Positions 6,345 through 37,327 of a stretch of 64,000 bases of DNA are shown piece by piece (positions within the stretch are counted from its first letter, which is position 1; the number at the start of each line of letters is the position of its first letter). Made by a program: the position numbers and the translations under genes. This DNA comes from Candidatus Binatia bacterium (GTDB taxonomy: Bacteria > Desulfobacterota > Binatia > UBA9968 > JAJDTQ01): positions 818,467-882,466 of the forward strand of contig OY729432.1 in the NCBI GenBank assembly GCA_963422385.1. Direction: 5' to 3'. The notes beneath the pieces are model-generated. The model was not told the DNA's origin, did no database searches, and saw nothing but the letters and a program-made list of their open reading frames with translations.

Positions 6345-6375
6345 GCGGACGGGTTTCAAGCCCGCCAGCGCCCGC
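6345..6375. repeat. REP-like GC-rich palindrome, degenerate copy
   Basis: GCGGACGGGTTTCAAGCCCGCCAGCGCCCGC lies between the convergent DUF35 and SYLF genes. Confidence 0.4.
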
Positions 6376-6376
6376 A

Positions 6377-7054
6377 CTACCGCGACGCCTCGGTGAGTGT
6401 CTTGATGAGGGTATCCGCCTGCTTGTTCTTGAACTTTCGTCGGAGCAGGATGTCTCGAGGTGAGACCTTGGGCTGCCCGTAGTAGGTTTGATTGTCGGTC
6501 CGGTTGATGACCACGCCGCCGCCCTCGATGGCCAGACCGGCGAACAGTCCCTTGATGCGGGAAAACGAAAAGATGTCGAAGATCTCGGCCTTGGCTCCGA
6601 TCCCCATGGGGCCTACACCGATGCTTGCGTCGGCGCCGAGATGGAACTTGTCCCTCAGGAATCTTCTCAAGCCCCTTTCCGTCATGATCATGAGGATGAC
6701 CTGCCCGCCCGCGGCGCCGAACTGAAGGCCGAAGGAACCGGAAGCCACATCGTAGAAGGCCGGATAGCTCCAGGTGCCGGCGCTGTCCTGGGCCAGCAGC
6801 ACGCCCTTGCCCCCCGACCCGCCGACGAAAAACCCTCCCTTGAGGAGCACCGGCATGATGAGCAGTCCCTTGGCGTAACGCACATTCTCCCGGAACCACG
6901 TCATCCGGGCATCCCTCTGGAAATCCCTGAACGCGAACTGGGCCTTGGTCACTCTCTGGGCCAAGTCCTCCTCGGTGACCTGCGCGCCCGAGGGGACGGC
7001 GGACAACGCGGCGCAAAGGAACAGGCCGGCAAATGACACCAGAATTTTTCGCAT
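6377..7054 (-). CDS. SYLF/Ysc84 (DUF500) domain lipoprotein
   Basis: Signal peptide with lipobox (MRKILVSFAGLFLCAALSA). Glycine-rich SYLF core (GGFFVGGSGGKGVLLA...GLQFGAAGGQVILMIM). Confidence 0.75.
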   Translation of the reverse strand: MRKILVSFAGLFLCAALSAVPSGAQVTEEDLAQRVTKAQFAFRDFQRDARMTWFRENVRYAKGLLIMPVLLKGGFFVGGSGGKGVLLAQDSAGTWSYPAFYDVASGSFGLQFGAAGGQVILMIMTERGLRRFLRDKFHLGADASIGVGPMGIGAKAEIFDIFSFSRIKGLFAGLAIEGGGVVINRTDNQTYYGQPKVSPRDILLRRKFKNKQADTLIKTLTEASR

Positions 7055-7188
7055 CGGACGCCTCTCTTTCGCTGGACCCTCGTCGCCCGTCGGAGACGGC
7101 ACTCGCAGGCTACCTGCCAATCATGATTAACATGTAGCGCAGGGATGGGAAACGAAACACGACCGGCGAGGTCTCACAGGACGCCACG

Positions 7189-8232
7189 CTAGCACTCCAT
7201 CCCGATGCCCGCGGCCCGGGCCTTGTCGTGGACCAACCGCGCCAGCGCCATGTACCCCACGCCCTGGTCGCTGTTCTGCTTGAACAGGGTGACGTCCTTG
7301 TCGCTGCGGCGTCCGGGGGTCTTCCCGGTCACCAGCGCGCTCAGGTCCTTGACGTCATTCCAGGCGAGAACGCCGTTCCGGACCGGCTCGAGCAGGTCCC
7401 CCTGCTCGTCCTGAATGCCTTGCTGCACCAGGGTCGCGACGATCACGTCCGCCCGCGCCAGCACCTCGTCGTCCAGCTCCCGGCGCGGCCGGCTGACCAG
7501 CCCTTCCATCAGCAGCTCCTTGTTGCTACCCACGATGGAGGTGACGTGGACTCCCTCCTCCAGCCACCGCCCGAAGACCACGGGCACGTTGCTGCCGGTG
7601 GCGCAAACGATGATGTCCACGTTCCGGGCGGCGTCCTCGGGCTGGTCCACGGGCTTCAGTTCCGCGTCCACGTGGGGCTGCATGGTGTCGCAGAAGGTGC
7701 GACGGTTGTCGGCGCTGCGGCTGTAGACCCGCACTTCCCGGATGGGTCGGATGGCGCACATGGCTTCGACGTGGCGGCGCGCCTGGCGGCCGGTGCCGTA
7801 GAGTCCCAGCACCGTGGCGTCCTCCCGGGCCATGCGCCGGGTGCCGACAGCGCTGGTGATGGCGGTCTCGGTGGCGAACTCGTCCCCGGTGGCTTGCCGC
7901 CGGTAGAAGGGCGGACAACCGGCGATGATCGCCAGCAGCGCGCCGGTCTCGCTGTCATAGCTAACGTAGACCCGCGTTCCCACCGCCGCGTAGCTCTGGT
8001 CCTGGGCCGTGTAGTTGTGCCGTTCGTAGTGGACGAAGGTCCCGGCCACCCCGAGGGGCACGCATCCGCCGGAATGAACGGTGATGCGACGGTCGTTCGC
8101 CAGCATCCGCTGGCGCGGCAGGCTGAAAACGGGATGGTCCTCCTGCGAGGCGAACCCCTTCTCGACGGCGTCGACCGCCTCGGTGATGGAGATAAGCCCG
8201 GTGAGATCTTCGGACCTGATGAACAGTGCCAT
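7189..8232 (-). CDS. Ornithine cyclodeaminase / mu-crystallin family protein
   Basis: Rossmann motif GLYGTGRQARRH inside an OCD-family fold of 347 aa. Confidence 0.8.
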   Translation of the reverse strand: MALFIRSEDLTGLISITEAVDAVEKGFASQEDHPVFSLPRQRMLANDRRITVHSGGCVPLGVAGTFVHYERHNYTAQDQSYAAVGTRVYVSYDSETGALLAIIAGCPPFYRRQATGDEFATETAITSAVGTRRMAREDATVLGLYGTGRQARRHVEAMCAIRPIREVRVYSRSADNRRTFCDTMQPHVDAELKPVDQPEDAARNVDIIVCATGSNVPVVFGRWLEEGVHVTSIVGSNKELLMEGLVSRPRRELDDEVLARADVIVATLVQQGIQDEQGDLLEPVRNGVLAWNDVKDLSALVTGKTPGRRSDKDVTLFKQNSDQGVGYMALARLVHDKARAAGIGMEC

Positions 8233-8250
8233 GGGCTTTGCCCCGCAGCG

Positions 8251-9099
8251 CTATATGTGGGCCCGGGTGAACTCCAGCGTGCGCTCGCACACGTTCCCGG
8301 TGGTCTGATCCGGCGGCATGACGTTCCAGAACTCCGGCTGAGGCAGACACTCGCGCAGGTAGTGGGCGCCCGAGGTGGCGTGGGACGGATCGTCACCCGG
8401 TATCACCAGCGCCGGCGCCTTGATGCCCATCAACTCTTCCGGCTCGGCGCCGGTGGCGGTATCCCGGTCGAACAGACCCGGGCCGCTGGTGGCGATGATC
8501 CCCGCGTAGCGCTCCGGATCCCCGGCCGCGAATTGCTCCGCGAACGCGATGTCCCGGGCGATCACCGACGCCCAGGGACCGGACGCGGGGTCGGTCCAGA
8601 AGGTCGTCCCCTTGGCCGCCCGGTCCACCACTCCCCGGAGACCGTTTTCCCGCACGAAGTCGAGATGGTTGGCGAAGCGCGCCCGGCTCGCGGACTTCCA
8701 GCGGTATCCGCCCACCGGCCAGTGGAGGATCATGCCCCGGGTCGTCTCCGGAAAGTTGACGCCGAAGGAAAGGGCCACCGAGCAGCCCATGCAGCCGCCC
8801 ATGACGAAGGCCGAATCGATCCGGAGATGGTCGAGAAGCTGTTTGCCCTCGCTGGCGTAGGCGATCCAGGTCAGGCGTTCCACGCGCCCGCCGGACTGTC
8901 CCGACTCGCGCCGGTCGTAGGCGATCACCCGATGCTCCGAGGCCAGCTTCGCCAGAGCGTCGATGCCGGTCCAGGCGCTGGCCACGCGCCACTTCTCGAT
9001 GGTGGAATCGAAACCTCCGGGCGCGAACATCAGCAGCGGCGTTCCGGAGCCGTAGGTTTCGTAGTGGATCTCGATCCCGTCGATGACGGCAGTCGGCAT
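8251..9099 (-). CDS. Alpha/beta-hydrolase fold protein
   Basis: LLMFAPGGFDS ... nucleophile elbow GGCMGCSVAL. Start taken at MPTAVIDGIE. Confidence 0.7.
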   Translation of the reverse strand: MPTAVIDGIEIHYETYGSGTPLLMFAPGGFDSTIEKWRVASAWTGIDALAKLASEHRVIAYDRRESGQSGGRVERLTWIAYASEGKQLLDHLRIDSAFVMGGCMGCSVALSFGVNFPETTRGMILHWPVGGYRWKSASRARFANHLDFVRENGLRGVVDRAAKGTTFWTDPASGPWASVIARDIAFAEQFAAGDPERYAGIIATSGPGLFDRDTATGAEPEELMGIKAPALVIPGDDPSHATSGAHYLRECLPQPEFWNVMPPDQTTGNVCERTLEFTRAHI

Positions 9100-9313
9100 G
9101 AAGCTCCTCCCGAATGGCCCATGAGCGCATGCAGACCGCGCGCAAACAGGGCGTCCATGATATTTTTCCACGATTAGCCCAACCGTGTGGAGTAGTCAAA
9201 TTCCCGGCGCCACGGCGGCCGCTGGACGGGTCATTGACCCGGCTCGGTTTCGGGTCCTATACTGCCCGCCTGAATATCGAGCGGCCGGCCGTACCGGCGC
9301 CACGGAGGAAACC

Positions 9314-10243
9314 ATGTTGATCGATTGGCATTCACACCACACGGCGCCGGAGGTGGTGGACGCGTTTCGAAAGAAGGCCGGGAAGTCGCCGAAGGTCGAC
9401 GCTTACGATTCAGGCAACTTCGACAAGAGACTTGCCGAGCTGGACCAGGCGGGGATCGACTTCCAGCTCGTCTGTCAGGGAGCCAGCGAGGACGCGGACC
9501 AACTCGAGGCGGGGGACGCCATCGAGATGGCGCGCCTGTCCAACGACGTGCTGGCGGAGCGCATTGCCGGGCACACGGACCGGTTCGGAGGTATCACCGC
9601 CCTGTCGCTCAAGAACGTGAGGGAGTCGGTGGAGGAGATCCAGCGCATGGACTCCCGGGGTTTCAAGGCGGTGCTCATCTACCCGCGGGTGGACGGCGCG
9701 ATGAAGGTGGACCTGCCGGAGCTCGATCCCGTTTTCGCCAAGGTGGCCGAGCTGGACCTGCCCCTCTTCCTTCACGGCAGCGGAGGCGCCAAGGATCCGA
9801 CGCTCAAGCGGCTGGAGGACGGCGGCGCCGGGGTCGCCTACAGCGTGCTGTCGGATGCCAGCGTGAACGAGTGCGTCATGCGCATGATCGCGGGCGGTGT
9901 CTTCGACCGTCATCCCAACCTCAAGGTGGTGATACGCAGCGGTGGCGGCGGCCTCCCCCTCCTGGTCCAGAGGATGTCCTGGAAGCACAAGGGGTCCCGG
10001 GGCGAGAGGCGCTACTCCGACATCTTCCTGGAGCACTTCCTCATCGACACGGCCAGCGTCAAGCCCGGCGCGCTGCCCTTCCTCACCGACGTGATGGGGT
10101 CCGGGGGCATCGTCTTCGGCTCGGATTATTGCGGCGGATTGGGGCCCCTCAAAAGGGCGCTCACGGTCGTGGACGAGCAACGGAACGCGTCGGAGATCCG
10201 CTCCTGGACGGAGCGGAATTCCCGCGAGATGCTGCACCTGTAG
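9314..10243 (+). CDS. Amidohydrolase-2 family (PF04909) metal-dependent hydrolase
   Basis: MLIDWHSHH N-terminal metal-binding motif. TIM-barrel amidohydrolase features run to ...GSDYCGG. Confidence 0.75.
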   Translation: MLIDWHSHHTAPEVVDAFRKKAGKSPKVDAYDSGNFDKRLAELDQAGIDFQLVCQGASEDADQLEAGDAIEMARLSNDVLAERIAGHTDRFGGITALSLKNVRESVEEIQRMDSRGFKAVLIYPRVDGAMKVDLPELDPVFAKVAELDLPLFLHGSGGAKDPTLKRLEDGGAGVAYSVLSDASVNECVMRMIAGGVFDRHPNLKVVIRSGGGGLPLLVQRMSWKHKGSRGERRYSDIFLEHFLIDTASVKPGALPFLTDVMGSGGIVFGSDYCGGLGPLKRALTVVDEQRNASEIRSWTERNSREMLHL

Positions 10244-10270
10244 TCGGCCGCGTGGTCTGCCGGAACCGGG

Positions 10271-10310
10271 CGCGGGCGGGTTTGAAACGTTTGAAACCCG
10301 CCCCTACATC
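10271..10310. repeat. REP-like GC-rich palindrome with a duplicated loop
   Basis: GCGGGCGGGTTTGAAACGTTTGAAACCCGCCCCTACATCC lies between convergent gene ends. Confidence 0.5.
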
Positions 10311-10391
10311 CTTGGTCGTAGTGGCCTGCCAAGACAGGCGGGGGTGAAACCCGTCTCTGCGGCATGGGGAGGGGCGGGCATGGGCAAGGTG

Positions 10392-11303
10392 CTATCCACC
10401 CGGCTTCACCTGGGCGGCGAAAACCTCGAGGGTGCGCAGGAAGCTCGGGTGCGACAGGGTCGCCATGTCCAGGACGACGTGCTCCACGCCAGCTTCCCCG
10501 AACTCGGCGATGCGGTCCCGGATCAACGAAGGGGTCCCGTTGAACGGCGTGTTGCCGGCCCGGCCCGCGTAAGGCCCCACCGGCTCCGAGACGCCTTCGA
10601 TGAGCAGGTTTGCGCGTAGCGACATGCTCGGGACCCGGGCGACCTGCCGCCGTTCACACAACCTGGCCATGTAGGCTCTTCCGTCCTTCATCTGTTCGGC
10701 GGTAAGCCCGATGGGGTGCCACCCATCGCCCAGCTCTACGGCCCGCCGCATGGCGCGCTTGCTTCTGCCGCCGATCCAGATCGGCGGTCCCGGCTGCTGC
10801 ACCGGTCTCGGCGAGGCATGGACCTTGTCGAAGTTGAAGTACCTGCCGGTGAAGCCCGTCTGATCGTGGGTCCACATCTCACGGATGATGCGCAGGTATT
10901 CGTCGCTTACGTCACCGCGATCCTCGAAGCGCGCCCCCAGGGCGTTGAACTCCCCTTCCATGTACCCGGCCGCGGCCCCGAAGATGACTCGCCCGCCGGA
11001 GAGGACGTCGATGCTCGCAAGCATCTTGGCCATGACGATGGGATTGCGGTAGGCCAGAACGATGATGCTGCTGCCAAGCTGCGCCCGGTGCGAAACCGCG
11101 GCCAGGAAGCTGAACACGGTGAACGCCTCGAGCATATGCTCGCGATAGATCAACTGCGCTTCACGGACGCCCTCCGGGATCACGATGTGGTCGGTGACCC
11201 AGATGGAATCGAATCCCAACCGCTCGATCTCGGTCACCGCCTCGACCAGCTCGGCGCGCCCGGTCTCCCGGCCGTAGTGCGTAAGACAGACCCCGAATTT
11301 CAT
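10392..11303 (-). CDS. LLM-class (luciferase-like) F420/flavin-dependent oxidoreductase
   Basis: MKFGVCLTHYG...WVTDH...GGRVIFGAAAGY are the typical LLM motifs. Confidence 0.8.
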   Translation of the reverse strand: MKFGVCLTHYGRETGRAELVEAVTEIERLGFDSIWVTDHIVIPEGVREAQLIYREHMLEAFTVFSFLAAVSHRAQLGSSIIVLAYRNPIVMAKMLASIDVLSGGRVIFGAAAGYMEGEFNALGARFEDRGDVSDEYLRIIREMWTHDQTGFTGRYFNFDKVHASPRPVQQPGPPIWIGGRSKRAMRRAVELGDGWHPIGLTAEQMKDGRAYMARLCERRQVARVPSMSLRANLLIEGVSEPVGPYAGRAGNTPFNGTPSLIRDRIAEFGEAGVEHVVLDMATLSHPSFLRTLEVFAAQVKPGG

Positions 11304-11342
11304 GGATTCCCCCGAAAGGTGGCTGTAGCGGCCGACGGTGCG

Positions 11343-11363
11343 GTGCGGGCGGGTTTGAAAGCC
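11343..11363. repeat. REP-like half-site
   Basis: GTGCGGGCGGGTTTGAAAGCC lies immediately 3' of gloA. Confidence 0.3.
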
Positions 11364-11367
11364 TCCT

Positions 11368-11754
11368 CTACTGTTTCCGCGTGGTCAGCTCGATCTTGTA
11401 GCCGTTGGGATCCTCGATGAAGGCGATGACCCCGCCGCCGTGCTTCATGGGACCCGCATCGCGAGTGATCTTGACTCCCTTCTTCCGCAGGTCGTCACAG
11501 GTGGCGTACACGTCGGGCACTCCGATGGCGATATGGCCGAAACCGTCGCCCACGTCGTACTCGTGGGTGTCCCAGTTGTAGGTCAGCTCGATGACGGCGT
11601 TGTCGTCCTCGGAGCCGTAACCCACGAAACAGTTGGTGAAGCGGCCGGACTCATAGTCCTTCTTCTTCAAGACATCCATCCCCAATCCGTCGCAATAGAA
11701 GTTGAGGCTTTCATCCAGGTGCTTGACCCGAATCATGGTGTGAACGATTCTCAT
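11368..11754 (-). CDS. gloA: Lactoylglutathione lyase (glyoxalase I)
   Basis: MRIVHTMIRVKHLDESLNFY...GHIAIGVPDVYATCDDLRKKG...IAFIEDPNGYKIEL. Confidence 0.85.
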   Translation of the reverse strand: MRIVHTMIRVKHLDESLNFYCDGLGMDVLKKKDYESGRFTNCFVGYGSEDDNAVIELTYNWDTHEYDVGDGFGHIAIGVPDVYATCDDLRKKGVKITRDAGPMKHGGGVIAFIEDPNGYKIELTTRKQ

Positions 11755-11767
11755 GAGATTCTCCTTC

Positions 11768-12388
11768 TCAGGCTTGCTCGCAAATTTGTGAGGGATCGGC
11801 CACCGCCTCCCGAATCTCCCAGCCCTTTGACCGCGTGAAGCTCACGTGGCTGAATTCACAGGGTTTCAGATGAAAGGCGCGATACTCGTTCAGCGGCGTC
11901 CGGCTGATGCGGCACAGTACGGAAAGGATGGGAAAACTGTGGCTGACCACGACGATGGTGTCCCCGTCGTCGTGACTCTCGACGATGCGGTTGAGCGCGG
12001 ACCGGACCCGGCGGTCCACGTCGAGCAACCGCTCTCCGCCCGGCAGGTCCACGGCCACGGGTTGCGAGCGCCACCGTTCGATCAATCCTCCGAACCTCTC
12101 ACGGACCTCGACGAACGTGAGGCCTTCCATCTCGCCATGGTCGAGCTCGCGCAGGTCGGGCTCGATCTTCACGGCGACGTCATGGGGTCCGCCGACAATC
12201 TCGGCGGTTTGCCGGGCTCGCTGGAGGTCGCTGGAATAGATCGCATCGATACGGCAGCGGCTCAGGTGCTCGGCGACCTCGTTGGCTTGCCGGTGGCCGA
12301 GCTCGTTGAGCTCGATGTCCGAGCTCCCTTGGCACCGGCCTTCCCGGTTCCAGCGGGTCTCGCCGTGACGCAACAGAAAAATCTGCAT
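11768..12388 (-). CDS. Histidine phosphatase family protein (phosphoglycerate-mutase-like)
   Basis: The RHGE catalytic motif is present (LLRHGETRWN). Confidence 0.8.
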   Translation of the reverse strand: MQIFLLRHGETRWNREGRCQGSSDIELNELGHRQANEVAEHLSRCRIDAIYSSDLQRARQTAEIVGGPHDVAVKIEPDLRELDHGEMEGLTFVEVRERFGGLIERWRSQPVAVDLPGGERLLDVDRRVRSALNRIVESHDDGDTIVVVSHSFPILSVLCRISRTPLNEYRAFHLKPCEFSHVSFTRSKGWEIREAVADPSQICEQA

Positions 12389-12403
12389 GGGAAGGGTGGC
12401 GCG

Positions 12404-14305
12404 TCAGATGAATTCCGGATGGATCTCTATCACGGCATTGGCCTTCAGGTTCTCGATCAACCTTCTCAACGCTCGCTGCCGCTTCTCTTCCCGTATCTGC
12501 TGCGTCAGGTCCTTCTTCTCCTTGGCCAGGCCGGCCGGATCGGCCTCTATGGTCTTCCTCAGCACCATGACGTAAACCGTGTCGTCCTGGAGGTAGGCGG
12601 TCTCCACCACCGGTTTCTCCTTCGTCACCGTGAGTCGTCCCAGTGGCAGCGGGAGAATCCCGATCTCGGGGATCTCGGCCTGCCCGCGCGGAAACAATCC
12701 GGTGTCTCCCACGTCGAGCCCATCGGACGCCGCCACCCTGGCCAGATCCGGCGTTTCCCTGAGCTCCGCAAGAAGTTCTTCGCCCTTCTTGCGGGCCATC
12801 TCTCGCGCCTTCCTTCGGGTGAGGGTCTCGGTGATCCCGTCCTTCACGTCCTCCAGGGGCGGGACCACGGGTTCCATCCGCTCGGCGCCCTCCATCAGGT
12901 ACAGCGCGTCGGGTGCCGAGACGATGGGCCCTACCTGACTCGGCTTGAGGGACAGGGCCACGCGGTAAAAGTCCTCCACGTCGCCGATCTCGTCCAGCGT
13001 ATCACCCGCGCTGAACAGTCTCGTTTCCGACAACGCGATCCCCCGTTTCGGGGCGACCTCGGCCAGCCGCGAACCGTCAAGCGCCCTTTCGCGGTCTTCC
13101 TCCGCCGCCCGCGCCGCCTTGGCCGCGCCGCGTTCACGCTTGAGCGCCTCGACGATCTCCTCCCTCACCTCATCGAGCTCCACGACCCCTTCCTCCTGTT
13201 TCTCCACCGCCTTCAACAGGTGCAGCCCGAGCGCGCTTTCGACGATCTCGCTCACCTCGCCTTGCTTCAGGACGAAAAGCGCCTCATCCAGCGCCGCCAC
13301 AAGCTGACCCCGGCCCACAAAGCCCATGTCGCCACCCTGCGCGGCGCTCTCGTCCCTGGAGTGCCGCTTGGCCAACTCGGCGAAGTCGGCGCCCTCACGG
13401 GCCTGCTTCAGAACGTCTTCCAATTGCTTGCGCGCCGCCGACTTGTCTTCCGGCGTCGTACCTTCGGCCGGCGCCGGGATGAAGATCTGGCTGAACTTCA
13501 CCGCATCCCGCCTGCGGAACCGGCGGTCACGGTAGACGTCGTAGTAGGCCCGCACTTCCTGGTCGGAGACCTCGATATCGGCCGCGAAGTCTTCCACGCG
13601 ATACGCCAGGTACCGTGCCTTGACCTTGAGCGGTTCCCGCAACAGCGCGCCGTTGCCGTCGTAGTAGGCCCTGATCTCCTCGTCCTCGACCTCGATGTCC
13701 TGGAAAAAATCCTCGGTCTTGAGACGGACGAAATTCAGCGCGATCTCCTGATTGTCCACCTGATAACGTTGCTCGACCTCGTCGGCCGTGACCGGGATGG
13801 AGTCCTGGATCAGATCCTGGAGTTTCCGGATCACCAGGGCCTCGCGCTGCCGGGCCTCGAACTCTCCCGGAGTCAGCCCCTGTCCGCGAAGCGCCTGCTC
13901 GTAGACATTCTTGTTGAACCGGCCCGCGGCCTGGAACGCCGGGTTGCGCGCGATTCCCCGCACCAACTCCTCATCGGTGACCTGAAGCCCCAGATCCTGA
14001 GCCGCCTGCAACAACAACCGTTGCTGGATCAGCTCCTCCAGCAACTGGCCCCTGAGATTGAGCGCCTCGATGTCGGCGGGAGAGAGCCGTCCTCCGGCCA
14101 GTTGCCGGTAGGTCTGCAGCATCCTGTAGTAATGGCCCTCGAGCTCGGTGTAGGTGATCTTGTCCCCGTTCACCTCCGCGATGGTGACCACCTGCTCCTG
14201 TCCTCCCTGGGGACCCACGCCGACCATGACGAACGCCAACACGCCGACCCCAAGCAAGAGCAGCACCAACCACGACCGTTTTCTCTTTCGTAGCGCGTCA
14301 AGCAT
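12404..14305 (-). CDS. ppiD: Periplasmic chaperone / peptidyl-prolyl isomerase (PpiD/SurA-like)
   Basis: N-terminal TM anchor, then SurA_N-like and parvulin PPIase domains (...DFAELAKRHSRDESAAQGGDMGFVGRGQLV...). Start taken at MLDALRKRK. Confidence 0.75.
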   Translation of the reverse strand: MLDALRKRKRSWLVLLLLGVGVLAFVMVGVGPQGGQEQVVTIAEVNGDKITYTELEGHYYRMLQTYRQLAGGRLSPADIEALNLRGQLLEELIQQRLLLQAAQDLGLQVTDEELVRGIARNPAFQAAGRFNKNVYEQALRGQGLTPGEFEARQREALVIRKLQDLIQDSIPVTADEVEQRYQVDNQEIALNFVRLKTEDFFQDIEVEDEEIRAYYDGNGALLREPLKVKARYLAYRVEDFAADIEVSDQEVRAYYDVYRDRRFRRRDAVKFSQIFIPAPAEGTTPEDKSAARKQLEDVLKQAREGADFAELAKRHSRDESAAQGGDMGFVGRGQLVAALDEALFVLKQGEVSEIVESALGLHLLKAVEKQEEGVVELDEVREEIVEALKRERGAAKAARAAEEDRERALDGSRLAEVAPKRGIALSETRLFSAGDTLDEIGDVEDFYRVALSLKPSQVGPIVSAPDALYLMEGAERMEPVVPPLEDVKDGITETLTRRKAREMARKKGEELLAELRETPDLARVAASDGLDVGDTGLFPRGQAEIPEIGILPLPLGRLTVTKEKPVVETAYLQDDTVYVMVLRKTIEADPAGLAKEKKDLTQQIREEKRQRALRRLIENLKANAVIEIHPEFI

Positions 14306-14496
14306 ATTCGAAACTCTCCTCGGAGCGCGACAACCTGTTTGGCAAACTCGTTCGCGATCCGCCCGGCACGCGGCAGAGATACGAACCAAAGCTCATTATA
14401 GGTAGCCCTGGTGATGAAATGAAGGGCAGCAGCGGCGCCGCGGCAGCCAACGCTTCTTTACCCTTCTCGTTTGTTGTACCACGGATTGACTTCTGA

Positions 14497-15585
<1,089 letters not shown>

Positions 15586-15602
15586 AAGGACAGAGGCTGA
15601 AC

Positions 15603-16586
15603 TTGCCCGCAGCCAGGACAGGGAGAACTGCGGACTCGCCCCGGTCAACGCAGCATCCATCCAGAAACCGCCAGCCGGACACCCGCTCGAGCAGAACCGG
15701 GTTTCTGGCCATCACGACACTTCGCCGGTATCGGATACCGATCCACTGCCTGTGCGCTCTGGCCTTGGCGTTCTACGTCGTAACCGTCTCATCCACCGTC
15801 CCTGACAAGGGAGACCCGGTTACCAGGTTCCTGTCGCAATCCGTGAGACCGCTGCAGATGTCACTCCACGCCCTGGGCGCGGCGATGCGAAACCTGCAAC
15901 TCAACTACGTGGCCTTCAAGGACATCTGGAACGAGAACCAGGCCCTGAAGGAACGGGTCGCCGCCCTGGAGGCCGAACGCAACCGGCTCTTCGAAGCCAA
16001 GCTCGCCAATGATCGCCTGACCGAGCTGCTGGAGATCCGAACGCGGATATTGAGGGAATCCGTGGCGGCCACGGTGATCAGCAACAGCGCCAGCAGTTGG
16101 TTTCGCACCATAACGGTAGGCAAGGGCAAGCGTGCGGGCATCCATCAGGGCATGGCGGTCATCACCCCGAAGGGCGTCGTCGGCAGGGTCGTGTCCGTGG
16201 AAGACGACACCGCCAAGGTGATGCTGTTGACGGACTACAAGAGCGGGCTTGATATCATCACGCAACGGACTCGGGTGCGCGGCATCGTCTCCGGATCGGT
16301 GGACGGAGAGCCCATCGTCAAGTACATGGGCCATAACGAGGACGTCCGTCCCGGCGACAGACTCATCACCTCGGGGCTGGATGGGACGTTTCCCAAGGGA
16401 CTTCTGGTTGGCACCATCGTCAACATCACGGATGACGGTCCCGGGCTTTTCCGGCGGGTTCGCGTCGCGCTGGCGGTGGATCCGTTGGTGATGGAAGAGG
16501 TGCTTTTCATCTCCGACAAACCCAGACCGGCGGTTTCCTCCGCATCGAGGGAGGACGGGGAGAAAACGCTCCCGGTTATGCCATGA
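15603..16586 (+). CDS. mreC: Rod shape-determining protein MreC (start uncertain)
   Basis: Coiled-coil followed by the MreC beta-domain (VISNSASSWFRTITVGKGKRAGIHQGMAVITPKGVVGRVVSVEDDTAKVMLLTD). Lies directly downstream of mreB. Confidence 0.8.
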   Translation: MPAARTGRTADSPRSTQHPSRNRQPDTRSSRTGFLAITTLRRYRIPIHCLCALALAFYVVTVSSTVPDKGDPVTRFLSQSVRPLQMSLHALGAAMRNLQLNYVAFKDIWNENQALKERVAALEAERNRLFEAKLANDRLTELLEIRTRILRESVAATVISNSASSWFRTITVGKGKRAGIHQGMAVITPKGVVGRVVSVEDDTAKVMLLTDYKSGLDIITQRTRVRGIVSGSVDGEPIVKYMGHNEDVRPGDRLITSGLDGTFPKGLLVGTIVNITDDGPGLFRRVRVALAVDPLVMEEVLFISDKPRPAVSSASREDGEKTLPVMP

Positions 16587-17107
16587 ACGTCTCCCTGAGC
16601 TTCTTCGGCATCGGCCTGGTCTTCGTTGTCCTGCAGTCCACGCTCCTGCACCTCGCAAGCTGGACGCCCATCACCCCCGACCTGACCCTGATCCTCTGCG
16701 TCTATTGGGCACTCAACCGCCCACGAGTAGAGGCCGTTTGGGCGACGTTTCTGCTGGGATACGCCATCGACATCCTGTCGAGTCCTCAACCGGGCTTGAA
16801 CGCCTTGGCCTTCTCCGCCGTCTTTCTGGTAGTATACGTCGTCTTTCGCTACGTCTGGGCCAACGGCCCCCTGGTCAGCGCCGTGACCGTATTCGTGGCC
16901 GTATGGCTGAAAGTCGGCACGCTGATCGTCATTTTCCCGCTGTTCGAGCTGTCCGCGGGCAGTTGGGTCGTCGTTGCCGACGCCATCTTGCGGGAAGCCC
17001 TCTTCTCTGCCTGTATCGCACCCTTGCTGTTCCCCATGCTTCGCTACATCCAGACCCGCATGGAGACCGTGAAAAAATCGTCCTTCCTCGCCAATGCTTC
17101 CTCTTAG
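16583..17107 (+). CDS. mreD: Rod shape-determining protein MreD
   Basis: Polytopic membrane protein of 174 aa. The start overlaps the mreC stop. Confidence 0.75.
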   Translation: MNVSLSFFGIGLVFVVLQSTLLHLASWTPITPDLTLILCVYWALNRPRVEAVWATFLLGYAIDILSSPQPGLNALAFSAVFLVVYVVFRYVWANGPLVSAVTVFVAVWLKVGTLIVIFPLFELSAGSWVVVADAILREALFSACIAPLLFPMLRYIQTRMETVKKSSFLANASS

Positions 17108-18977
17108 TTCCACCTCCCGTGCTCTGACGGAGTTCCGCGGGCGAATACGTATCTTCGGGCTGTTGATCCTTTTGGTTTTCGCCTTTCTGACGTACCGCCT
17201 GTGGACTCTCCAGATCCTGCAAGGCAAGCGTTACACCGTGATGTCCGAACACAACCGGATCCGGCTGGAACCCGTCCCCGCCGTCCGCGGCATGGTGTTC
17301 GACCGGAAACACCGGCTGCTGATCAACAGCCGCCCCTCCTTTGACGTGCGGTATCTGGCCAACGATTCGCAAGACCGGGAAACCACCCTGCGGCGCCTTG
17401 CGGACATGGTCGAGGGCGACGGGGCACGATTCCTCGAAGCAGTTAACCACAGCAAGGGATCGAGAGAATTCACGCTCATCCGCGACGTGGATTGGCCGTC
17501 CGTGGTGGCCGTGGAGACCCATCGACTGGATCTCCCGGGAGTGTACGTCAGCGTCAGAGCCCGGCGCAGATATCTGACCGACGAAATGACGGCCCACGTG
17601 CTCGGCTACCTGGGGGAGATCAACACCGAGCAATTGCGGCAGCTTCGCAGAAGGGGCTACCGGCGCGGAGACGAGATCGGACAGACCGGCCTCGAGAAGG
17701 GATGGGAGCTGCATCTGGCCGGCCGTAGCGGAGGCGAAAAGGTGGAGGTTGACGCGACCGGCCGCAAGGTGCGTGTGATCGATCGGCTCAAGGCGACCCC
17801 TGGACACAACGTGGTGTTGACCCTCGACGTGGACATTCAGCAAGTAGCGTACCATGCGTTGAAGGACAAGGAAGGCGCCATCGTCGTCCTCGACGTGAAT
17901 ACCGGCGCCGTCCTTGCCCTGGTGAGCACTCCCGCGTTCGACCCCAACTCGTTCGCGCGGGGCATGACGCCCGAGGAGTGGCGTCAACTGGCGGCCGACG
18001 ACGGAACACCGCTGCACAACAGGACGTTGCAGGGGCACTTCCCGCCGGGTTCGACGTTCAAGATCGTCACCGCCTTGGCCGCATTGCAGGAAGGCGTCAT
18101 CTCTCCTGATCAACATCTGTTCTGCGACGGCTCGTACAAGGTGGGCAATCGCGTTCTCCGGGATTGGAAGAAGTATGGACACGGCCGTATCGCCATGCAC
18201 CAGGCCTTGGTGCAGTCGTGCGACGTCTACTTCTACCAGTTGGCCCAGCGGCTCGGTGTCGAGAAGATTGCCAAGCACGCGCGGCGTTTCGGATTCGGCG
18301 CACCCACGGGCATCGAGCTCGACGGCGAAAGCGGCGGGTTGGTTCCCGACCGGGCGTGGAAGCGGCGCCGTTTGGGGGTCCGCTGGTATCCCGGCGAAAC
18401 TCCCCTCGTGGCCATCGGGCAGGGGTACCTCGGCGTGACGCCGCTGCAGATGGCAAGTATGGTCGCCACCGTGGCCAACGGGGGGACGGTGTATCGCCCC
18501 TGGTTCGTGAAGCAGGTTCTTTCGTCTGAAGGCGAGGTCATGGAAGAATATGGCCCGGTCCGTACCGGCACCGTGAACCTGCAAGAAGAGAACCTGAACA
18601 TCGTACGTAAGGCGCTTTTCGACGTGGTCCACGGAAGGAGAGGTACGGGCAAGCGGGCGCGATCGGGTATCGTCGACATTGCCGGAAAGACCGGCACCGC
18701 CCAGGTGGCCGAGATGCGTGGGGAAGCCGTCAAGAGCGAAGACCTGCCGTACGCGGTCAGGGATCACGCGTGGTTCGTGGCCTACGCTCCGGCTCGGAAT
18801 CCCGAGATCGCCGTTGCCACCCTCGTGGAGCACGGCGGACATGGCGGCGCCACGGCTGCGCCCATCACCAAGGAGATCATCGAAGCCTATTTTCGCCTTG
18901 AAGACGATGAGGCGGAAGACCCTGAAGGGACACACGGTCCGCTGGCGGTCTCGACCGGCGACAGGCCCCAAGGGTAG
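17094..18977 (+). CDS. mrdA: Penicillin-binding protein 2 (transpeptidase)
   Basis: PBP dimerisation and transpeptidase domains. SxxK (GSTFK) and KTGT motifs are present. Confidence 0.9.
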   Translation: MLPLSSTSRALTEFRGRIRIFGLLILLVFAFLTYRLWTLQILQGKRYTVMSEHNRIRLEPVPAVRGMVFDRKHRLLINSRPSFDVRYLANDSQDRETTLRRLADMVEGDGARFLEAVNHSKGSREFTLIRDVDWPSVVAVETHRLDLPGVYVSVRARRRYLTDEMTAHVLGYLGEINTEQLRQLRRRGYRRGDEIGQTGLEKGWELHLAGRSGGEKVEVDATGRKVRVIDRLKATPGHNVVLTLDVDIQQVAYHALKDKEGAIVVLDVNTGAVLALVSTPAFDPNSFARGMTPEEWRQLAADDGTPLHNRTLQGHFPPGSTFKIVTALAALQEGVISPDQHLFCDGSYKVGNRVLRDWKKYGHGRIAMHQALVQSCDVYFYQLAQRLGVEKIAKHARRFGFGAPTGIELDGESGGLVPDRAWKRRRLGVRWYPGETPLVAIGQGYLGVTPLQMASMVATVANGGTVYRPWFVKQVLSSEGEVMEEYGPVRTGTVNLQEENLNIVRKALFDVVHGRRGTGKRARSGIVDIAGKTGTAQVAEMRGEAVKSEDLPYAVRDHAWFVAYAPARNPEIAVATLVEHGGHGGATAAPITKEIIEAYFRLEDDEAEDPEGTHGPLAVSTGDRPQG

Positions 18978-18980
18978 ATC

Positions 18981-20081
18981 ATGCAAATCGACCGCCGGCT
19001 CCTGTCCAGCTTCGACTGGCCTCTGTTCGTCCTGTCCATCGGGCTGGCCTTGCTGGGTATCATGACCATCTATAGCGCCACGTGCAACGTCGACGAGGAG
19101 TGCTCGCGCTATTTGGCCACCAGGCAATCCTACTGGCTCGTCATCGGCTTGGTGCTGATGATCGCGACCTTTTCCGTGGATTATCAGCGCTTGAACCCTT
19201 GGGCATACCCCATCTACGCCGCGGTGGTCATTCTCCTCGCCCTGGTGCTGTTCATCGGCATCACCAGTGGAGGCTCCCAGCGATGGCTGGACCTGAGATT
19301 CTTCTCGTTCCAGCCCTCGGAGCTCGCCAAGCTCGTGCTCGTGCTCGTGCTGGCCAAGACGCTGTGCTACTACGAGCCCGGATATTCCCTCACGGCTCTA
19401 GGGGTGCCTCTGATGCTGTGTGCACCTGTGCTGGCGCTGGTGCTGCTGCAGCCGGACCTGGGGACGGCCGTGCTGATCTTTCTCGTCGCCATGGTGGTCG
19501 TGGTCATGTCCGGACTGCGCTTGCGGTCCCTGCTCTACTTCACGCTTGCCGCGGTTGCCGCCCTGCCGGCGGGTTGGCAGTTTCTGAAGCCGTATCAGAA
19601 AACCCGCATCTGGACCTTCATGAATCCGGAGTCGGACCCTCTCGGCGCCGGCTATCACGTCGTCCAGTCCAAGATCGCCATCGGCTCGGGGCGTCTTTGG
19701 GGAAAAGGATATCTTCAGGGCAGCCAGAACCGGCTGGAGTTTCTCCCGGAGCAGCATACGGATTTCATCTTCTCCGTATTTGCCGAAGAATGGGGGTTCT
19801 CGGGCTGCGTGCTGTTGCTGGCGGGGTATGTGTTGCTGATCCTGCTCGCGCTCCGGGCGGTGCGACGGGCTCAGGACCGTTTCGGAGCGCTATTGGCCGC
19901 GGGAATGACCGCCATCCTGTTCTGGCAGTTCACCATCAACATCGGCATGGTGACCGGCCTCCTGCCCGTGGTGGGGATTCCATTGCCGCTCATCAGCTAT
20001 GGCGGATCGTCCCTGGTTACGACCCTGGTGGCGGTGGGCCTGCTGATCAGCATCAGCATGAGGCGCAACACGCGGCCGTAG
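18981..20081 (+). CDS. rodA: Rod shape-determining protein RodA (SEDS family)
   Basis: FtsW/RodA/SpoVE polytopic fold, with ...PESDPLGAGYHVVQSKIAIGSG... Confidence 0.9.
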   Translation: MQIDRRLLSSFDWPLFVLSIGLALLGIMTIYSATCNVDEECSRYLATRQSYWLVIGLVLMIATFSVDYQRLNPWAYPIYAAVVILLALVLFIGITSGGSQRWLDLRFFSFQPSELAKLVLVLVLAKTLCYYEPGYSLTALGVPLMLCAPVLALVLLQPDLGTAVLIFLVAMVVVVMSGLRLRSLLYFTLAAVAALPAGWQFLKPYQKTRIWTFMNPESDPLGAGYHVVQSKIAIGSGRLWGKGYLQGSQNRLEFLPEQHTDFIFSVFAEEWGFSGCVLLLAGYVLLILLALRAVRRAQDRFGALLAAGMTAILFWQFTINIGMVTGLLPVVGIPLPLISYGGSSLVTTLVAVGLLISISMRRNTRP

Positions 20082-20111
20082 CGGCGGGTTTCAAACCCGC
20101 CCGTGCCCGCA
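20082..20111. repeat. REP-like GC-rich palindrome
   Basis: GCGGCGGGTTTCAAACCCGCCCGTGCCCGC lies between the convergent rodA and trxA genes. Confidence 0.5.
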
Positions 20112-20129
20112 CATCGCGCCGTGGGACAT

Positions 20130-20453
20130 TCAACCCAGGGCCTTGTCGATCTCGCTCACCAATCTGGCTTTGGAAGCCGCGCCCACGATCTGGCCCGAGA
20201 GGCCGCCTTCCTTGAAGATCATCAGGTTCGGAATCCCCTGTATGCCATAGCGGCTGGGTGTTTCCGGGTTTTCGTCGACGTTGATCTTCACCACCTTGAG
20301 CTTGCCGTCATACTCCCGCGCAAGCTCTTCCAGCACCGGCGCGATGGATTTGCACGGGCCGCACCAGGGAGCCCAGAAATCCACCAACACGGGCATGGAC
20401 GCGCGAATGACCTCTGCTTCGAACTCGTTGTCCGCTACATGGGATATGTCCAT
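20130..20453 (-). CDS. trxA: Thioredoxin
   Basis: The WAPWCGPCK active site is present. About 107 aa. Confidence 0.9.
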   Translation of the reverse strand: MDISHVADNEFEAEVIRASMPVLVDFWAPWCGPCKSIAPVLEELAREYDGKLKVVKINVDENPETPSRYGIQGIPNLMIFKEGGLSGQIVGAASKARLVSEIDKALG

Positions 20454-20509
20454 AGGACGTGCCTCCCTTTCCAAGCGCCCTCGACGAGGGCAGGATGCCC
20501 TCGCACCCT

Positions 20510-20540
20510 GGTAGGGGCGGGTTTGAAACCCGCCCCTACC
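20510..20540. repeat. REP-like GC-rich palindrome (full 12-bp stem)
   Basis: GGTAGGGGCGGGTTTGAAACCCGCCCCTACC sits 3' of pepA. Confidence 0.55.
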
Positions 20541-22023: not shown

Positions 22024-22026
22024 CGG

Positions 22027-22626: not shown

Positions 22627-22710
22627 CAAGGGAACGTAACATCTGCCCGAAAGCGGGTCAAATCGACCTCCGCAGCACCGCCGCGCCTTGCCGATAACGA
22701 GAAATCCTGA

Positions 22711-22729
22711 GTATATCTGCGTATATCTG
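22711..22729. promoter_or_regulatory. Tandem direct repeat GTATATCTG x2 in the folE/ptsP divergent intergenic region
   Basis: GAGTATATCTGCGTATATCTGTCC is AT-rich in a GC-rich background. It lies about 40 nt upstream of the ptsP start. Confidence 0.3.
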
Positions 22730-22764
22730 TCCACGAACTCCGGTTCAGACACGGAAATACAGCC

Positions 22765-25170
22765 ATGGCCCACATACCCGACATCATCACCGAGGACGAC
22801 ACCTCTCATCTCGTAACCCTTGAAGAAATCAGCCGGTTCGTGGACGAAGCCGAGGACCTGCAAGGCTGCCTCAACAGCATCGCGGGTATCGTGGCCAAGC
22901 GCATGCAAACCGAAGTCTGCTCGGTCTATCTCCACGATGCCGAGAGCGGGAAGTTGACTCTCAGCGCCACCAAGGGCCTGGACCCGGCGTCCGTGGGACG
23001 CGTGTCCATGCTGGTCGGCGAGGGCCTGGCCGGGCTGGTGGTGGAAACACGGGAACCCGTGATGGTCATGGACGCTCCGTCGCACCCACGCTTTCTGTAT
23101 TTCCCGGAGACCGGCGAGGAACGCTACCATTCCTTCTTCGGCGTTCCCGTCAGCGCCCAGAAGACGCCCATCGGCGTGCTGGTGGTACAGACTTCCCGCC
23201 CGCGTGAGTTCATGCACGAAGAGGTCCGGCTCCTCAAGGCCATTTCCGCCCAGGTTTCCACCATCATCGTCCATGCCCGGCTGGTGGATTCCCTCAAGGA
23301 CAAGGAGCGTGAACGCAAGCGGTCACGGCAACGCATGGTCAGCGCGCTGCGACGGCTGCGGTCTTACGAGGGAAAGGGAAAGGAACGAACCAGCGAGCCG
23401 ACGCGAAAGTTTCGCACCCGTCTGACCGGGCTTGCGGCCTGCCCCGGCTTTGCCTACGGCAAGGCCTACATCATGCAGCGCCTCATGGACCTGGACGCCA
23501 TCGGAAAGACCCACACCACCGATCCCGAGGGTGAGATCGAGCGTTTCCGTGCCGCGGTGCAACAAGCCGTGGGCCAGGTGCAAGAGATCAAGACCCGCAT
23601 GATCGCCCTCATTTCCGACGAGGCAGGGGCGATTTTCGACGTGCACCAACTGGTGCTGAAGGACCCGGTGCTGCAGAACGAAATCGAAAACCGGATCCTC
23701 GGAGAACACCTGACCGCATACTATGCCGTCAGCAGCGCATTCCGCGGACACATGCAAACCGTCAGCGAGGTCGGCGACCGGTACCTGAAGGAGCGGACGG
23801 CGGACATCCGTGACGTCGCCCAGAGACTACTGGACAACCTTTCGGGCTCCGAGGAAAGGCGGCTCGTGGTTCCGGACGGAGGCGCCATCCTGGTCGCCGA
23901 AGATTTCTCTCCCGCGGACCTGGTCCTGATCGAAGGCGATCGCTTTCAAGGTATCGTGCTCGCCACGGGGGGCGTCACCTCCCACGCGTCGCTGCTGGCC
24001 AAATCCTTCGAGATTCCCACCGTGGTTGCGGCGGAGGGGCTGCTGGAAAGCATCCGCAAAGAGGACTTGCTGATCGTCGACGGCAATTCCGGGGTCGTGT
24101 TCATCAACCCCAACAAGGAAATCGTGGGCGAGTACGACCGACTGGAGCGTCACTATCTCGCCGTCAACCGCGAACTCGACGAAATGCGGGATCTGCCGGC
24201 CGAAACCACCGACGGCCACCGGGTTCACCTGCTCGCCAATATGGGACTGCTCACGGATATCCGGTTTGCGCAGACCCATGGAGCGGAAGGCATCGGCCTC
24301 TACCGGACCGAGATTCCGTTTCTGGCGTATCATGACTTTCCCACCGAGGCGCAGCAGTTCACGCTCTATCAAAAGGTAGTGGAGGGCATGGGCGGCAAAC
24401 CCGTCACGATCCGGACGCTCGATATCGGCGCCGACAAATATCCCCCTTACGTGAGCATTGCCCGTTCCGAGCCCAATCCGTTCCTCGGATGGCGTTCCAT
24501 TCGCGTCTCGCTGGAGGTGTCCGAGACTTTCGAAATGCAGCTCCGGGCCATCCTGCGGGCGGGAGCGCTGGGCCCGGTGCGCCTCTTGATCCCCATGGTC
24601 TCCAGTCTGGAGGAGATCCTGCAGGTCAAGACCATGTTGCGGAAGGTCAGGGCCGATCTCGCGCGCAGCCGCCTGCCCTTCGACGCCAACATGGAGGTGG
24701 GAATCATGGTCGAGGTGCCCGCGGCGGTACAGATGGCGCAGCGGCTGATGGAGGAAGTGGATTTCGTCAGCATCGGGACCAACGACCTGATCCAGTACCT
24801 GTTGGCCGTCGACCGCGGAAATCGCAAGGTGGCGTCTCTCTACGAGCCCTTCCACCCGGCGGTCCTCTCCGCGCTCAGCCAGGTCATCCGGGCCGCCAAG
24901 GACAAGGGCAAGCGCGTCGCCATGTGCGGCGAAATGGCCGGGGACCCGTTATCGACCCTGTTGTTGATGGGCATGGGCCTCGAGGAGTTCAGCATGGAGT
25001 CCCTGTCCATTCCCGTGGTCCGGAAGCTGGTGCGCTCCGTGAGCCATGAGAGGGCCTTTGCCATCGGCCAGGCGGCTCTGCGCATGCACAGGGTCGATCA
25101 GATCAAACGCTATCTCTTCAGCGAAATGCGTGCCCTCGGTCTGGTGGAACTGATGGAGATCTACCGCTAG
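22765..25170 (+). CDS. ptsP: Phosphoenolpyruvate-protein phosphotransferase with N-terminal GAF domain (EI-Ntr)
   Basis: GAF domain, then the PEP-utilising enzyme N-terminal, mobile and PEP-binding TIM-barrel domains. 801 aa. Confidence 0.85.
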
Positions 25171-36335: not shown

Positions 36336-36531
36336 GCGAGAAGAGGATGAAGCCGAGGAAGATGACATCGAGCTTGTCGAAGCAGGAGAAGATTCGCCGG
36401 AATCCCTTGAGACGACGAAACAACCTCTCGATCTCGTTGCGGCGCTTGTACATGCGGCGATGGTACTTCCAAGGGTGGACTCGGGTGGACAACGGCGGCG
36501 CCACCGGTGTGAACCCCAGAGCCAGAGCCAA
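36238..36531 (-). mobile_element. IS5-family transposase, C-terminal fragment
   Basis: YKRRNEIERLFRRLKGFRRIFSCFDKLDVIFLGFILFSLI is the hallmark IS5 DDE C-terminus. Only 97 aa. Confidence 0.6.
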
Positions 36532-36610
36532 CGGGCGTGTCTCGTTACCTTCCTACGCCCGGTCCATGCTTACGCACTCTCGCCATGGTGTAACACGTCG
36601 GACCAGGTAC

Positions 36611-36700
36611 TGGCGGAGGGGGCGAGATTCGAACTCGCGGTCCACCGTTAAGCGGACGCCGATTTTCAAGACCGGTGCCTTAAACCACTCGGCCACCCCT
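36611..36700 (-). tRNA. tRNA-Ser (anticodon UGA), type II with a long variable arm
   Basis: Minus strand reads GGAGGGGTGGCCGAGTGGTTTAAGGCACCGGTCTTGAAAATCGGCGTCCGCTTAACGGTGGACCGCGAGTTCGAATCTCGCCCCCTCCGCCA. The anticodon loop is CTTGAAA. Confidence 0.85.
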
Positions 36701-36731
36701 CCGTTTTCGGGAAGACCCGGCGCGCCCCGTG

Positions 36732-37211
36732 TCAGGGGCGCTTATCGGAATTGTGCCACTTGGTGAAGGGATTTGCCACAAGGTTGGCGTTGTAGAAGCG
36801 GGGGTCGTCGGTGACCTCTTCGCCTACCCACGGGGGTTTGGTCAGGGGGCGGTCTTCCCGGTCGAGCTCGACCTCGGCAACGACGAGGCCCTGGTTGTCG
36901 CCGAGGAACTCGTCCACTTCCCAGACGAGGCCGTCGTGCTCCAGTCGCCGGCGCACCTTCTCGATGAGGGGCGGCTCGCACAGCCGCAGCAGCTCGGCGG
37001 CGTCCTCGGGCGGGATATCGTACTCGAACTCGGCGCGAGTGGCGCCCCGGGTGATGCCCTTGATGGTAAGTCGGGCCTTGTCGCCCTCGATGCGCACACG
37101 CACGGTGCGCTCCGGCTGGGTGCTGAGGTAGCCTTGACGGAGGACCACGCCCTCGGCGTTGCGCCATTCGTCTCCGGTGACCAGGAACTTGCGCTCGATC
37201 TCCAGCGCCAT
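36732..37211 (-). CDS. CYTH domain protein (CyaB / thiamine-triphosphatase-like)
   Basis: MALEIERKFLV... contains the ExExK motif. 159 aa. Confidence 0.75.
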   Translation of the reverse strand: MALEIERKFLVTGDEWRNAEGVVLRQGYLSTQPERTVRVRIEGDKARLTIKGITRGATRAEFEYDIPPEDAAELLRLCEPPLIEKVRRRLEHDGLVWEVDEFLGDNQGLVVAEVELDREDRPLTKPPWVGEEVTDDPRFYNANLVANPFTKWHNSDKRP

Positions 37212-37294
37212 GTGGGATCCTCGCTGCCGCGCCCCGCTCGTGCGAAGTGGCTGTTGGAGACCATCAGAAGGCCGAACGGGCTGGTAGCGGGGCA

Positions 37295-37327
37295 GCACGA
37301 GGGGTTTGAAACCCGCCCCTACATCCG
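37295..37327. repeat. REP-like GC-rich palindrome
   Basis: GCACGAGGGGTTTGAAACCCGCCCCTACATCC sits 3' of the LLM gene. Confidence 0.5.

Follow-up and report, generated by a model that had tools for sequence, protein, structure and literature searches.

Along the 64-kb window analysed here (64,000 nucleotides of contig OY729432.1 from Candidatus Binatia bacterium, positions 818,467 to 882,466) we found seven copies of a short GC-rich palindrome. We consider it likely that they are GTAG-footed repetitive extragenic palindromes (REPs), of the type with a perfect palindrome and a double foot that is associated with subclass 2.4 of the REP-associated tyrosine transposases (RAYT, also TnpA_REP, of the HUH-Y1 kind; Group 4 of Bertels). 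The repeats have the anatomy of such elements and lie outside genes at gene 3' ends. At matching sites in relatives they are present or absent, they donate stop codons to the genes upstream, and in other genomes they co-vary with RAYT genes. A REP family with a RAYT connection had been put forward in the original prediction, which was made from the letters of the window. This was supported by the GTAG foot joined to a GC-rich palindrome, the extragenic position at 3' ends, the empty sites in relatives and the copies inside or beside PF01797 genes elsewhere.

The repeat unit and its empty sites in relatives

The unit is 25-31 nt long and consists of GTAG, GGGCGGG, TTTSAAA and CCCGCCC, with or without a closing CTAC. 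A search that allowed 3 mismatches to the 21-mer GGGCGGGTTTSAAACCCGCCC yielded 5 sites (6347, 11347, 20082, 20515 and 37298), compared with 0.02 in shuffled sequences. A 15-nt half-site gave 11 strand-hits against 0.35 expected and brought in a copy at 10274-10303 with a doubled loop half. Extending the pattern to the footed 25-mer GTAGGGGCGGGTTTSAAACCCGCCC, at up to 6 mismatches, also gave 11 strand-hits, now at 7 sites (0.19 for permuted control patterns), and added a degenerate copy at 10336-10360. With 5-11 hits where chance gives 0.02-0.35, the predicted palindrome family is real. All six of its predicted sites were borne out, among them the full form (GGTAGGGGCGGGTTTGAAACCCGCCCCTACC at 20510-20540) and the copy with the duplicated loop half at 10274; the count of at least six had missed 10336-10360 and has to be raised to seven.

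All copies fall between 6.3 and 37.3 kb of the window. One is perfect, one is half-duplicated and five are decayed. A foot, GTAG or CTAC, is present on six of the seven, and the two double-footed copies (20510-20540 and 37284-37322) have stems that start with GGG. The perfect copy folds very stably, both as DNA (-21 kcal/mol, z -7.3) and as RNA (-37.5 kcal/mol, z -7.5), while the decayed copies fold at the level of shuffled sequence. Copies 6343 and 20078 have a common 3' extension, G[CT]GCCCGCAC, which also occurs at Binatia and related loci. Apart from one pair in direct orientation (10274 and 10336), the copies are singletons.

Every copy is located downstream of a real gene. The occupied spacers are convergent in three cases, same-direction in three and divergent in none, so the expectation that the repeats usually sit between convergent genes was half right. 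Their position immediately downstream of a stop codon holds, and five copies even contain the stop itself: the TAG of the foot ends the genes for the Ysc84-domain protein (6377), a glyoxalase (11368), RodA/FtsW (20081), PepA (20536) and a luciferase-like monooxygenase (37319). TAG is the stop of 20 of the 47 predicted window genes (43%), an unusually high share for a bacterium, and five of these TAGs are REP feet. Since TAG is already so frequent among the stops of the window, the coincidence of foot and stop is only moderately significant. GTAG REPs are known to lie downstream of open reading frames (ORFs) and to provide the TAG stop frequently (Di Nocera 2013, PMC3733652), so direct adjacency is a published REP trait.

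The window is related to the metagenome-assembled genome OZ220712.1, and the locus L003 (loci from other genomes are given L numbers) is syntenic with it at ~85% nucleotide identity. At three loci with 80-87% identity (L176-L178) the order pepA-trx-rodA is retained and the copies are absent at both sites. Two further loci, L256 and L257 (92% and 91% identity in the monooxygenase), have the gene order in common with the window over 20.9 kb, spanning six of the seven sites, and contain no copy within 6 mismatches in this stretch. Of the 80 loci brought up by PepA in a metagenome scan, L176-L178 among them, none had a copy within 5 mismatches. We also observed the reverse case, since L003 bears a copy in a spacer that is empty in the window.

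The clearest empty site is the end of pepA. The gene ends with ATG TGA GGG in L176, ATA TGA in L178 and ATC TGA GTC in L256; in the window, ATC TG is followed by GTAGGGGCGGGTTTCAAACCCGCCCCTACC and then by A GGG. Deleting 30 nt (20510-20539) from the window gives ATC TGA GGG, with the TGA at the same codon as in L176, L178, L256 and L257. Because this removal gives back the TGA of the relatives, the copies are insertions, and the REP went into the PepA stop codon itself (TG^A). PepA gained one residue (Trp) in the window and TAG as its new stop, and there is no target duplication at this clean empty site. A miniature inverted-repeat transposable element (70-300 bp, bounded by terminal inverted repeats and flanked by a target-site duplication) was ruled out by the 25-31 nt unit and by this lack of a duplication. 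Similarly, the spacer between trx and rodA measures 48 nt in the window and 4-15 nt in L176-L178, and the two genes overlap in L256; the C-terminus of RodA reads RNTRP* in the window and RNTR* in L176 and L178. These comparisons show that the copies were inserted into the window lineage after its split from relatives of ~80-92% protein identity. Clean empty sites are rare sequence-level evidence of a REP going into a stop codon and donating its TAG as the new one.

At the two clean empty sites, pepA (window 20509/20540) and the L003 site (window ~30362), the insertion point is G^AGGG, and the glyoxalase stop of the REP-free relative reads GTAGGGTG, similar to the 5' end of the REP itself. G^AGGG may be a target preference. 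We do not claim a target-site rule, as two clean G^AGGG sites and two pre-existing GTAG stops make four sites, which are too few.

In L256 and L257 the spacer between the monooxygenase and the amidohydrolase holds another double-foot REP, GTAGGGGCGACCGGCCGGTCGCCCCTAC, which aligns head-to-head with the window copy at 10274-10307. This second double-foot family has the head GTAGGGGCG in common with the window REP. It was located at 10921-10948 in L256 and L257, at 2423-2450 and 2876-2903 in L182, at 5125-5152 in L183 and at 6999-7026 in L115. In more distant relatives it stands directly after pepA. A search for it in the window found no copy.

Spread across phyla and association with RAYT genes

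To call the family specific to this genome, as originally predicted, proved wrong. An exact-match scan for the 21-mer GGGCGGGTTTSAAACCCGCCC over one genome per species (596 Gb) found it in at least 120 stretches of genomes, which belong to more than 20 phyla. The hosts include Chloroflexota (Dehalococcoidia and Anaerolineae), Binatia, Thermodesulfobacteriota, Nitrospirota, Alpha- and Gammaproteobacteria, Bacteroidota, Actinomycetota, Bacillota, Gemmatimonadota, Myxococcota, Omnitrophota, Fibrobacterota, Deinococcota, Planctomycetota, Acidobacteriota and others; one carrier of the REP, Lewinella cohaerens DSM 23179 (L008), is cultivable. By our estimate, 596 Gb should contain fewer than about two chance matches of a 21-mer, even at 65% GC throughout. 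Among the matches listed, the GTAG foot accompanies 129 of 149 exact copies (87%) and stands on both sides in 33; GTAG at the 5' side, CTAC at the 3' side, or both, is the sole conserved flank of these 149. The copies in other genomes are likewise extragenic: among the matches listed, a long ORF spans 28% of 128 copies, compared with 75.5% of random positions. Up to 4 exact copies were present per 8 kb.

The 21-mer was also found in 48 stretches of viral contigs from IMG/VR (L125-L172; for example L171 3413-10677, L134 and L151), with as many as 9 copies in a span of 14 kb and a GTAG foot on 75 of 90. We looked for RAYT genes on these REP-carrying viral contigs and found none. The contigs may be prophages whose hosts are rich in REPs, or they may serve as a transfer route.

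Two arrays were observed among the loci of other genomes. In a Binatia genome (L099 4457-5045) five REP copies stand at an exact spacing of 142 bp, which makes a tandem array of a REP-containing unit, and in L117 (7442-7564) three exact copies follow each other in tandem, 34 and 68 bp apart.

In five loci from other genomes (L017, L080, L121, L123 and L124) a RAYT gene contains its REP or is flanked by it. In L017 and L080 the RAYT ORF (PF01797) itself contains the repeat motif, which follows the HUH motif directly. The L080 gene is AT-rich, so that the repeat is conspicuous in it as ccGTAGGGGCGGGTTTCAAACCCGCCCttc, translated RRGGFQTRP. At a threshold of E <= 1e-10, 2306 homologues of the L080 protein were found, and in 63 of the best 120 of these 2306 the loop at this place reads VGAG[LF]KPAPT, RAGLKPAPT or RGGFQTRPY. 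The 29-mer translates exactly to these peptides in frames 1 and 2, the two that are free of stops. Further homologues have loop variants such as VGAGLRPAPT, VGAGSEPAPT, VETGFKPVST and RGGSRTAPT.

When RAYT genes were read as DNA, nine of nine contained a perfect GTAG-footed palindrome, in variants such as GTAGAGACAGGTTTGAAACCTGTCTCTAC, GTAGGGGCGGTTCGCGAACCGCCCCTAC and GTAGGGGCGGGTCTGAGACCCGCCCCTAC, and compensatory changes were seen in four of the nine stem pairs of these internal palindromes. Several of the genes have tandem half-duplications that resemble window copy 10274. In L121, L123 and L080, copies of the gene's own palindrome variant also occur outside the RAYT gene. In-frame REPs inside RAYT genes are already published: Quentin et al. 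2018 (PMC6006769) describe TnpA_REP subclass 2.4 (Bertels Group 4) as having 'double foot' REPs and in-frame REP insertions between HuH and Y.

The REP explains the recurrent peptides VGAGLKPAPT and RGGFQTRPY of RAYT proteins, which is useful for annotation. Both strings also occur in many spurious ORFs of metagenomes.

Some RAYT genes with an internal REP are part of type I restriction-modification or helicase operons (L122 10001-10618, L173 10001-10552, L175 2679-3236 and L080 646-1263). The RAYT gene is flanked by hsdS and hsdR in L122, L173 and L175, with an overlap between its stop and the start of hsdR; in L080 the overlap is between the RAYT start and the end of a gene for a 965-aa SNF2-like helicase. 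Other RAYT neighbours are McrBC (L121) and a KAP NTPase with toxin-antitoxin genes (L124). This sample of neighbourhoods leans towards kin of the L080 protein.

Origin of the repeats and competing explanations

On the reading that we prefer, that of a double-foot REP family of a subclass 2.4 RAYT, the enzyme would bind the hairpin formed in single-stranded DNA, as judged from other RAYT/REP pairs in vitro. GTAG would act as a guide-like foot, and the RAYT would cut at a nearby CT before strand transfer, by analogy with the same kind of pairs. A guide-like GTAG, cleavage at CT and the existence of a group of perfect-palindrome REPs have been described by Corneloup 2021 (PMC8266576). The insertions fall at or within stop codons, and the TAG of the foot becomes the new stop. 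Copies would probably persist only where they do little harm, at the 3' ends of genes in spacers that are convergent or same-direction; most of the window copies have decayed since their insertion. Where intact hairpins are transcribed 0 nt from a stop (20510, and less so 20078 and 10274), they could stabilise the mRNA upstream, reduce read-through into the following gene or slow translation termination. REPs close to a stop codon reportedly affect translation. Such putative effects would be side effects and not the reason why the sequence exists, and a required regulatory role is argued against because relatives lack the hairpins.

The REPs of subclass 2.4 or RAYT Group 4 (Quentin 2018, PMC6006769; Bertels 2017, PMC5581495) have feet 5' GT[AG]G and 3' C[TC]AC, as does the perfect copy of the window, together with three G-C pairs at the stem base and a patchy spread over many phyla. 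However, one exact 21-29-mer common to more than 20 phyla and viral contigs is unreported in these papers, and Bertels 2017 gives ~14 occurrences of the Group 4 flanking 16-mers, compared with 7 copies in this 64 kb. The GTAG-tagged REP superfamily (Di Nocera 2013, PMC3733652; Nunvar 2010, PMC2817692) is likewise made of 20-40 bp palindromes with GTAG at one end, placed downstream of coding regions between same-direction or convergent ORFs, with the foot frequently serving as TAG stop. Its members have been described as species- or genus-specific and are often dimers, whereas the copies of the window stand alone, apart from one direct tandem pair, and their sequence crosses phyla.

REPs and bacterial interspersed mosaic elements (BIMEs) of E. 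coli (Ton-Hoang 2012, PMC3333891; Messing 2012, PMC3479197; Corneloup 2021, PMC8266576) also combine a GTAG foot with an extragenic hairpin; an HUH-Y1 enzyme recognises them in single-stranded form, and they are transcribed within 3' untranslated regions. They differ in being imperfect, bulged palindromes in inverted pairs, while the window REP is perfect, as in the second group of Corneloup 2021, and shows no BIME-like arrangement. REPINs (Bertels and Rainey 2011, PMC3116915) resemble the window REP in being non-autonomous and are thought to be copied by a single-copy RAYT, but they are inverted doublets, inherited vertically and lineage-specific; the window REP forms no doublets and is not lineage-specific. 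Quentin 2018 (PMC6006769) suggested that the double-foot form could be a collapsed doublet. The subterminal hairpins of IS200/IS605 likewise carry a 5' guide tetranucleotide for a Y1 HUH transposase and insert without target duplication, as at the pepA site. However, the window has no transposase gene between two hairpins, and the unit is a single hairpin of 25-31 nt.

Several observations weigh against our reading. We found no RAYT within the 64-kb window by regular expression, by tblastn with two RAYTs or by a profile hidden Markov model of 120 homologues in six frames, and no inverted REP doublet with a short spacer (REPIN or BIME) was found there. Since just one of the seven copies is intact, activity may have ended long ago. 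The REP-free relative L256 already has GTAG at the stops of its glyoxalase and Ysc84 genes, with no REP body at the first and unrelated sequence after the second; at these two sites the foot may be host sequence and not imported. Across all phyla, 30 of 174 foot TAGs are in the stop frame, compared with 28 and 34 in the other two frames. We therefore dropped the foot TAG as stop as a general rule, since it shows no clear enrichment across phyla. To our knowledge, there is no biochemistry of subclass 2.4 RAYTs.

As one alternative, the repeats might be host-evolved transcription terminators or stabilisers of mRNA 3' ends, kept for the needs of the gene and not mobile. This would fit the location of every copy at a gene 3' end, the very stable RNA hairpin of the intact copy, and the ordinary number of T-tract terminators in this GC-rich region (15 compared with 12.0 +/- 3.5 in shuffles), where hairpins lacking a tract might substitute. 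Like rho-independent terminators, the repeats are GC-rich hairpins straight after a gene, but unlike them they have a conserved GTAG foot and no U-tract: no T/U tract was seen when the flanks of all copies, including the one at 37284, were read directly, and a terminator scan of 5000-24999, which takes in five copies and leaves the 37284 copy outside, called none of the five. Five of the seven copies also fold no better than shuffles, and the hairpin is not kept at the matching sites of close relatives, where trx and rodA even overlap (L256). Finally, local evolution cannot have produced an identical GTAG-footed 21-29-mer that recurs in over 20 phyla and within RAYT genes. We therefore regard this explanation as quite improbable, and the label 'terminator-like' of the original prediction was not supported.

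A second possibility is that the copies are fossils of an ancestral REP burst whose RAYT has since been lost, neutral DNA in decay with neither mobility nor role at present. Six of the seven copies have 1-7 mismatches, duplications or insertions, the window lacks a RAYT, and E. coli strains are known to keep REPs after the loss of their RAYT (Di Nocera 2013, PMC3733652). The copy that is perfect over 31 nt suggests recent insertion or selection instead, and we find this explanation unlikely as a separate one. It is a sub-case of the REP reading, with the same origin and another present state, and the two are not separable from 64 kb. Operator sites of a dimeric DNA-binding regulator, or chance GC-rich palindromes, would account for the perfect two-fold symmetry and for a GC-rich sequence in a genome with 63% GC. 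Only 0.02-0.19 sites are expected by chance, however, and the sites follow genes, with none in a divergent promoter spacer. Neither the half-duplications nor the single, asymmetric GTAG foot that most copies have would suit an operator. This alternative is effectively refuted by the counts and positions, and we give it hardly any credence.

The repeats are thus a genuine REP family of a known kind (double-foot, RAYT subclass 2.4) that is new to this lineage. Only their constancy of sequence across phyla is unusual, and the REP surveys of Di Nocera 2013 and RepRanger 2025 do not describe it; the main text of neither contains the exact sequence, and we found no paper with it in the prokaryotic literature. 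A sequence that is constant in more than 20 phyla and viral contigs clashes with the usual view of REPs as species-specific, and low similarity of REPs across taxa has been noted (PMC12306157). As a tentative and rather doubtful idea, the REP might be a near-invariant 29-nt element of these phyla and viral contigs that is held constant by an in-frame 'master copy' in subclass 2.4 RAYT genes, with enzyme and substrate transferred horizontally together and seeding REP families on arrival. If this were true, the placement of RAYT genes in type I restriction-modification and helicase operons (L122, L173, L175 and L080) would hint at a defence-linked role and not at pure selfishness.

For the function of the window the repeats matter little. 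They are ordinary REP insertions that changed the last codon and the stop of five housekeeping or metabolic genes, and one very stable hairpin now stands between pepA and trx.

Individual copies and their surroundings

The genes beside the copies are ordinary ones, as judged by frame-specific GC and Pfam: ChsH2-like, Ysc84, amidohydrolase, two luciferase-like monooxygenases, glyoxalase, RodA/FtsW, thioredoxin and PepA. The first copy (6343..6380, degenerate, no strand assigned) reads GTGCGGACGGGTTTCAAGCCCGCC with the extension AGCGCCCGCACTAC. Its CTA (6377-6379) gives the minus-strand gene with the Ysc84 domain its TAG stop, and the spacer is convergent with the ChsH2-like gene at 5866-6276(+). 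The next spacer, also convergent, lies between the amidohydrolase gene (+, stop 10243) and a luciferase-like monooxygenase gene (-, stop 10392) and holds two copies on the minus strand. The one with the doubled loop half (10274..10307) reads GTAGGGGCGGGTTTCAAACGTTTCAAACCCGCCC on that strand, and its direct tandem partner, the degenerate seventh copy (10336..10360), reads GCAGAGACGGGTTTCACCCCCGCCT, with 6 mismatches to the 25-mer.

The same monooxygenase gene (10392-11303, minus strand) is preceded by a half-decayed copy at 11343..11371, GTAGAGGAGGCTTTCAAACCCGCCC on the minus strand. It occupies a same-direction spacer, and its foot TAG (11368-11370) is the glyoxalase stop. On the plus strand, the near-perfect single-foot copy at 20078..20112, GTAGCGGCGGGTTTCAAACCCGCCC with the extension GTGCCCGCAC, provides with its foot (TAG 20079-20081) the stop of RodA/FtsW in a spacer convergent with the thioredoxin gene. 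The perfect double-foot copy (20510..20540), to which no strand was assigned, contains the PepA stop as minus-strand TAG at 20536-20538 and is located 57-87 nt upstream of the thioredoxin start.

The last copy (37284..37322, minus strand) is double-footed with ~8 nt inserted in one arm, and its plus strand reads GTAGCGGGGC, AGCACGAG and GGGTTTGAAACCCGCCCCTAC in succession. The luciferase-like monooxygenase gene at 37319-38389 ends with the minus-strand TAG at 37319-37321. The spacer is of the same-direction kind, upstream of the ORF 36732-37211(-), and this ORF, which lies downstream of the copy, has a GC pattern of the coding type.

An Rfam search of the window returned two tRNAs only and no RNA family that matches the repeats, and no convincing further family of GTAG-footed hairpins was seen in the window. 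Two dips in GC content, at 2001-4000 (0.56) and 54001-56000 (0.587), stand out from ~0.64 elsewhere, the second of them inside a 1553-aa ORF (53860-58521, plus strand) that fails the coding filter for third-position GC. A hairpin at 535-561, AAGGGCGGGGGTAGATCACCCGCCCAC, has the stem GGGCGGG/CCCGCCC with another loop and lies between the end of a minus-strand gene and a tRNA-Ala (624-699).

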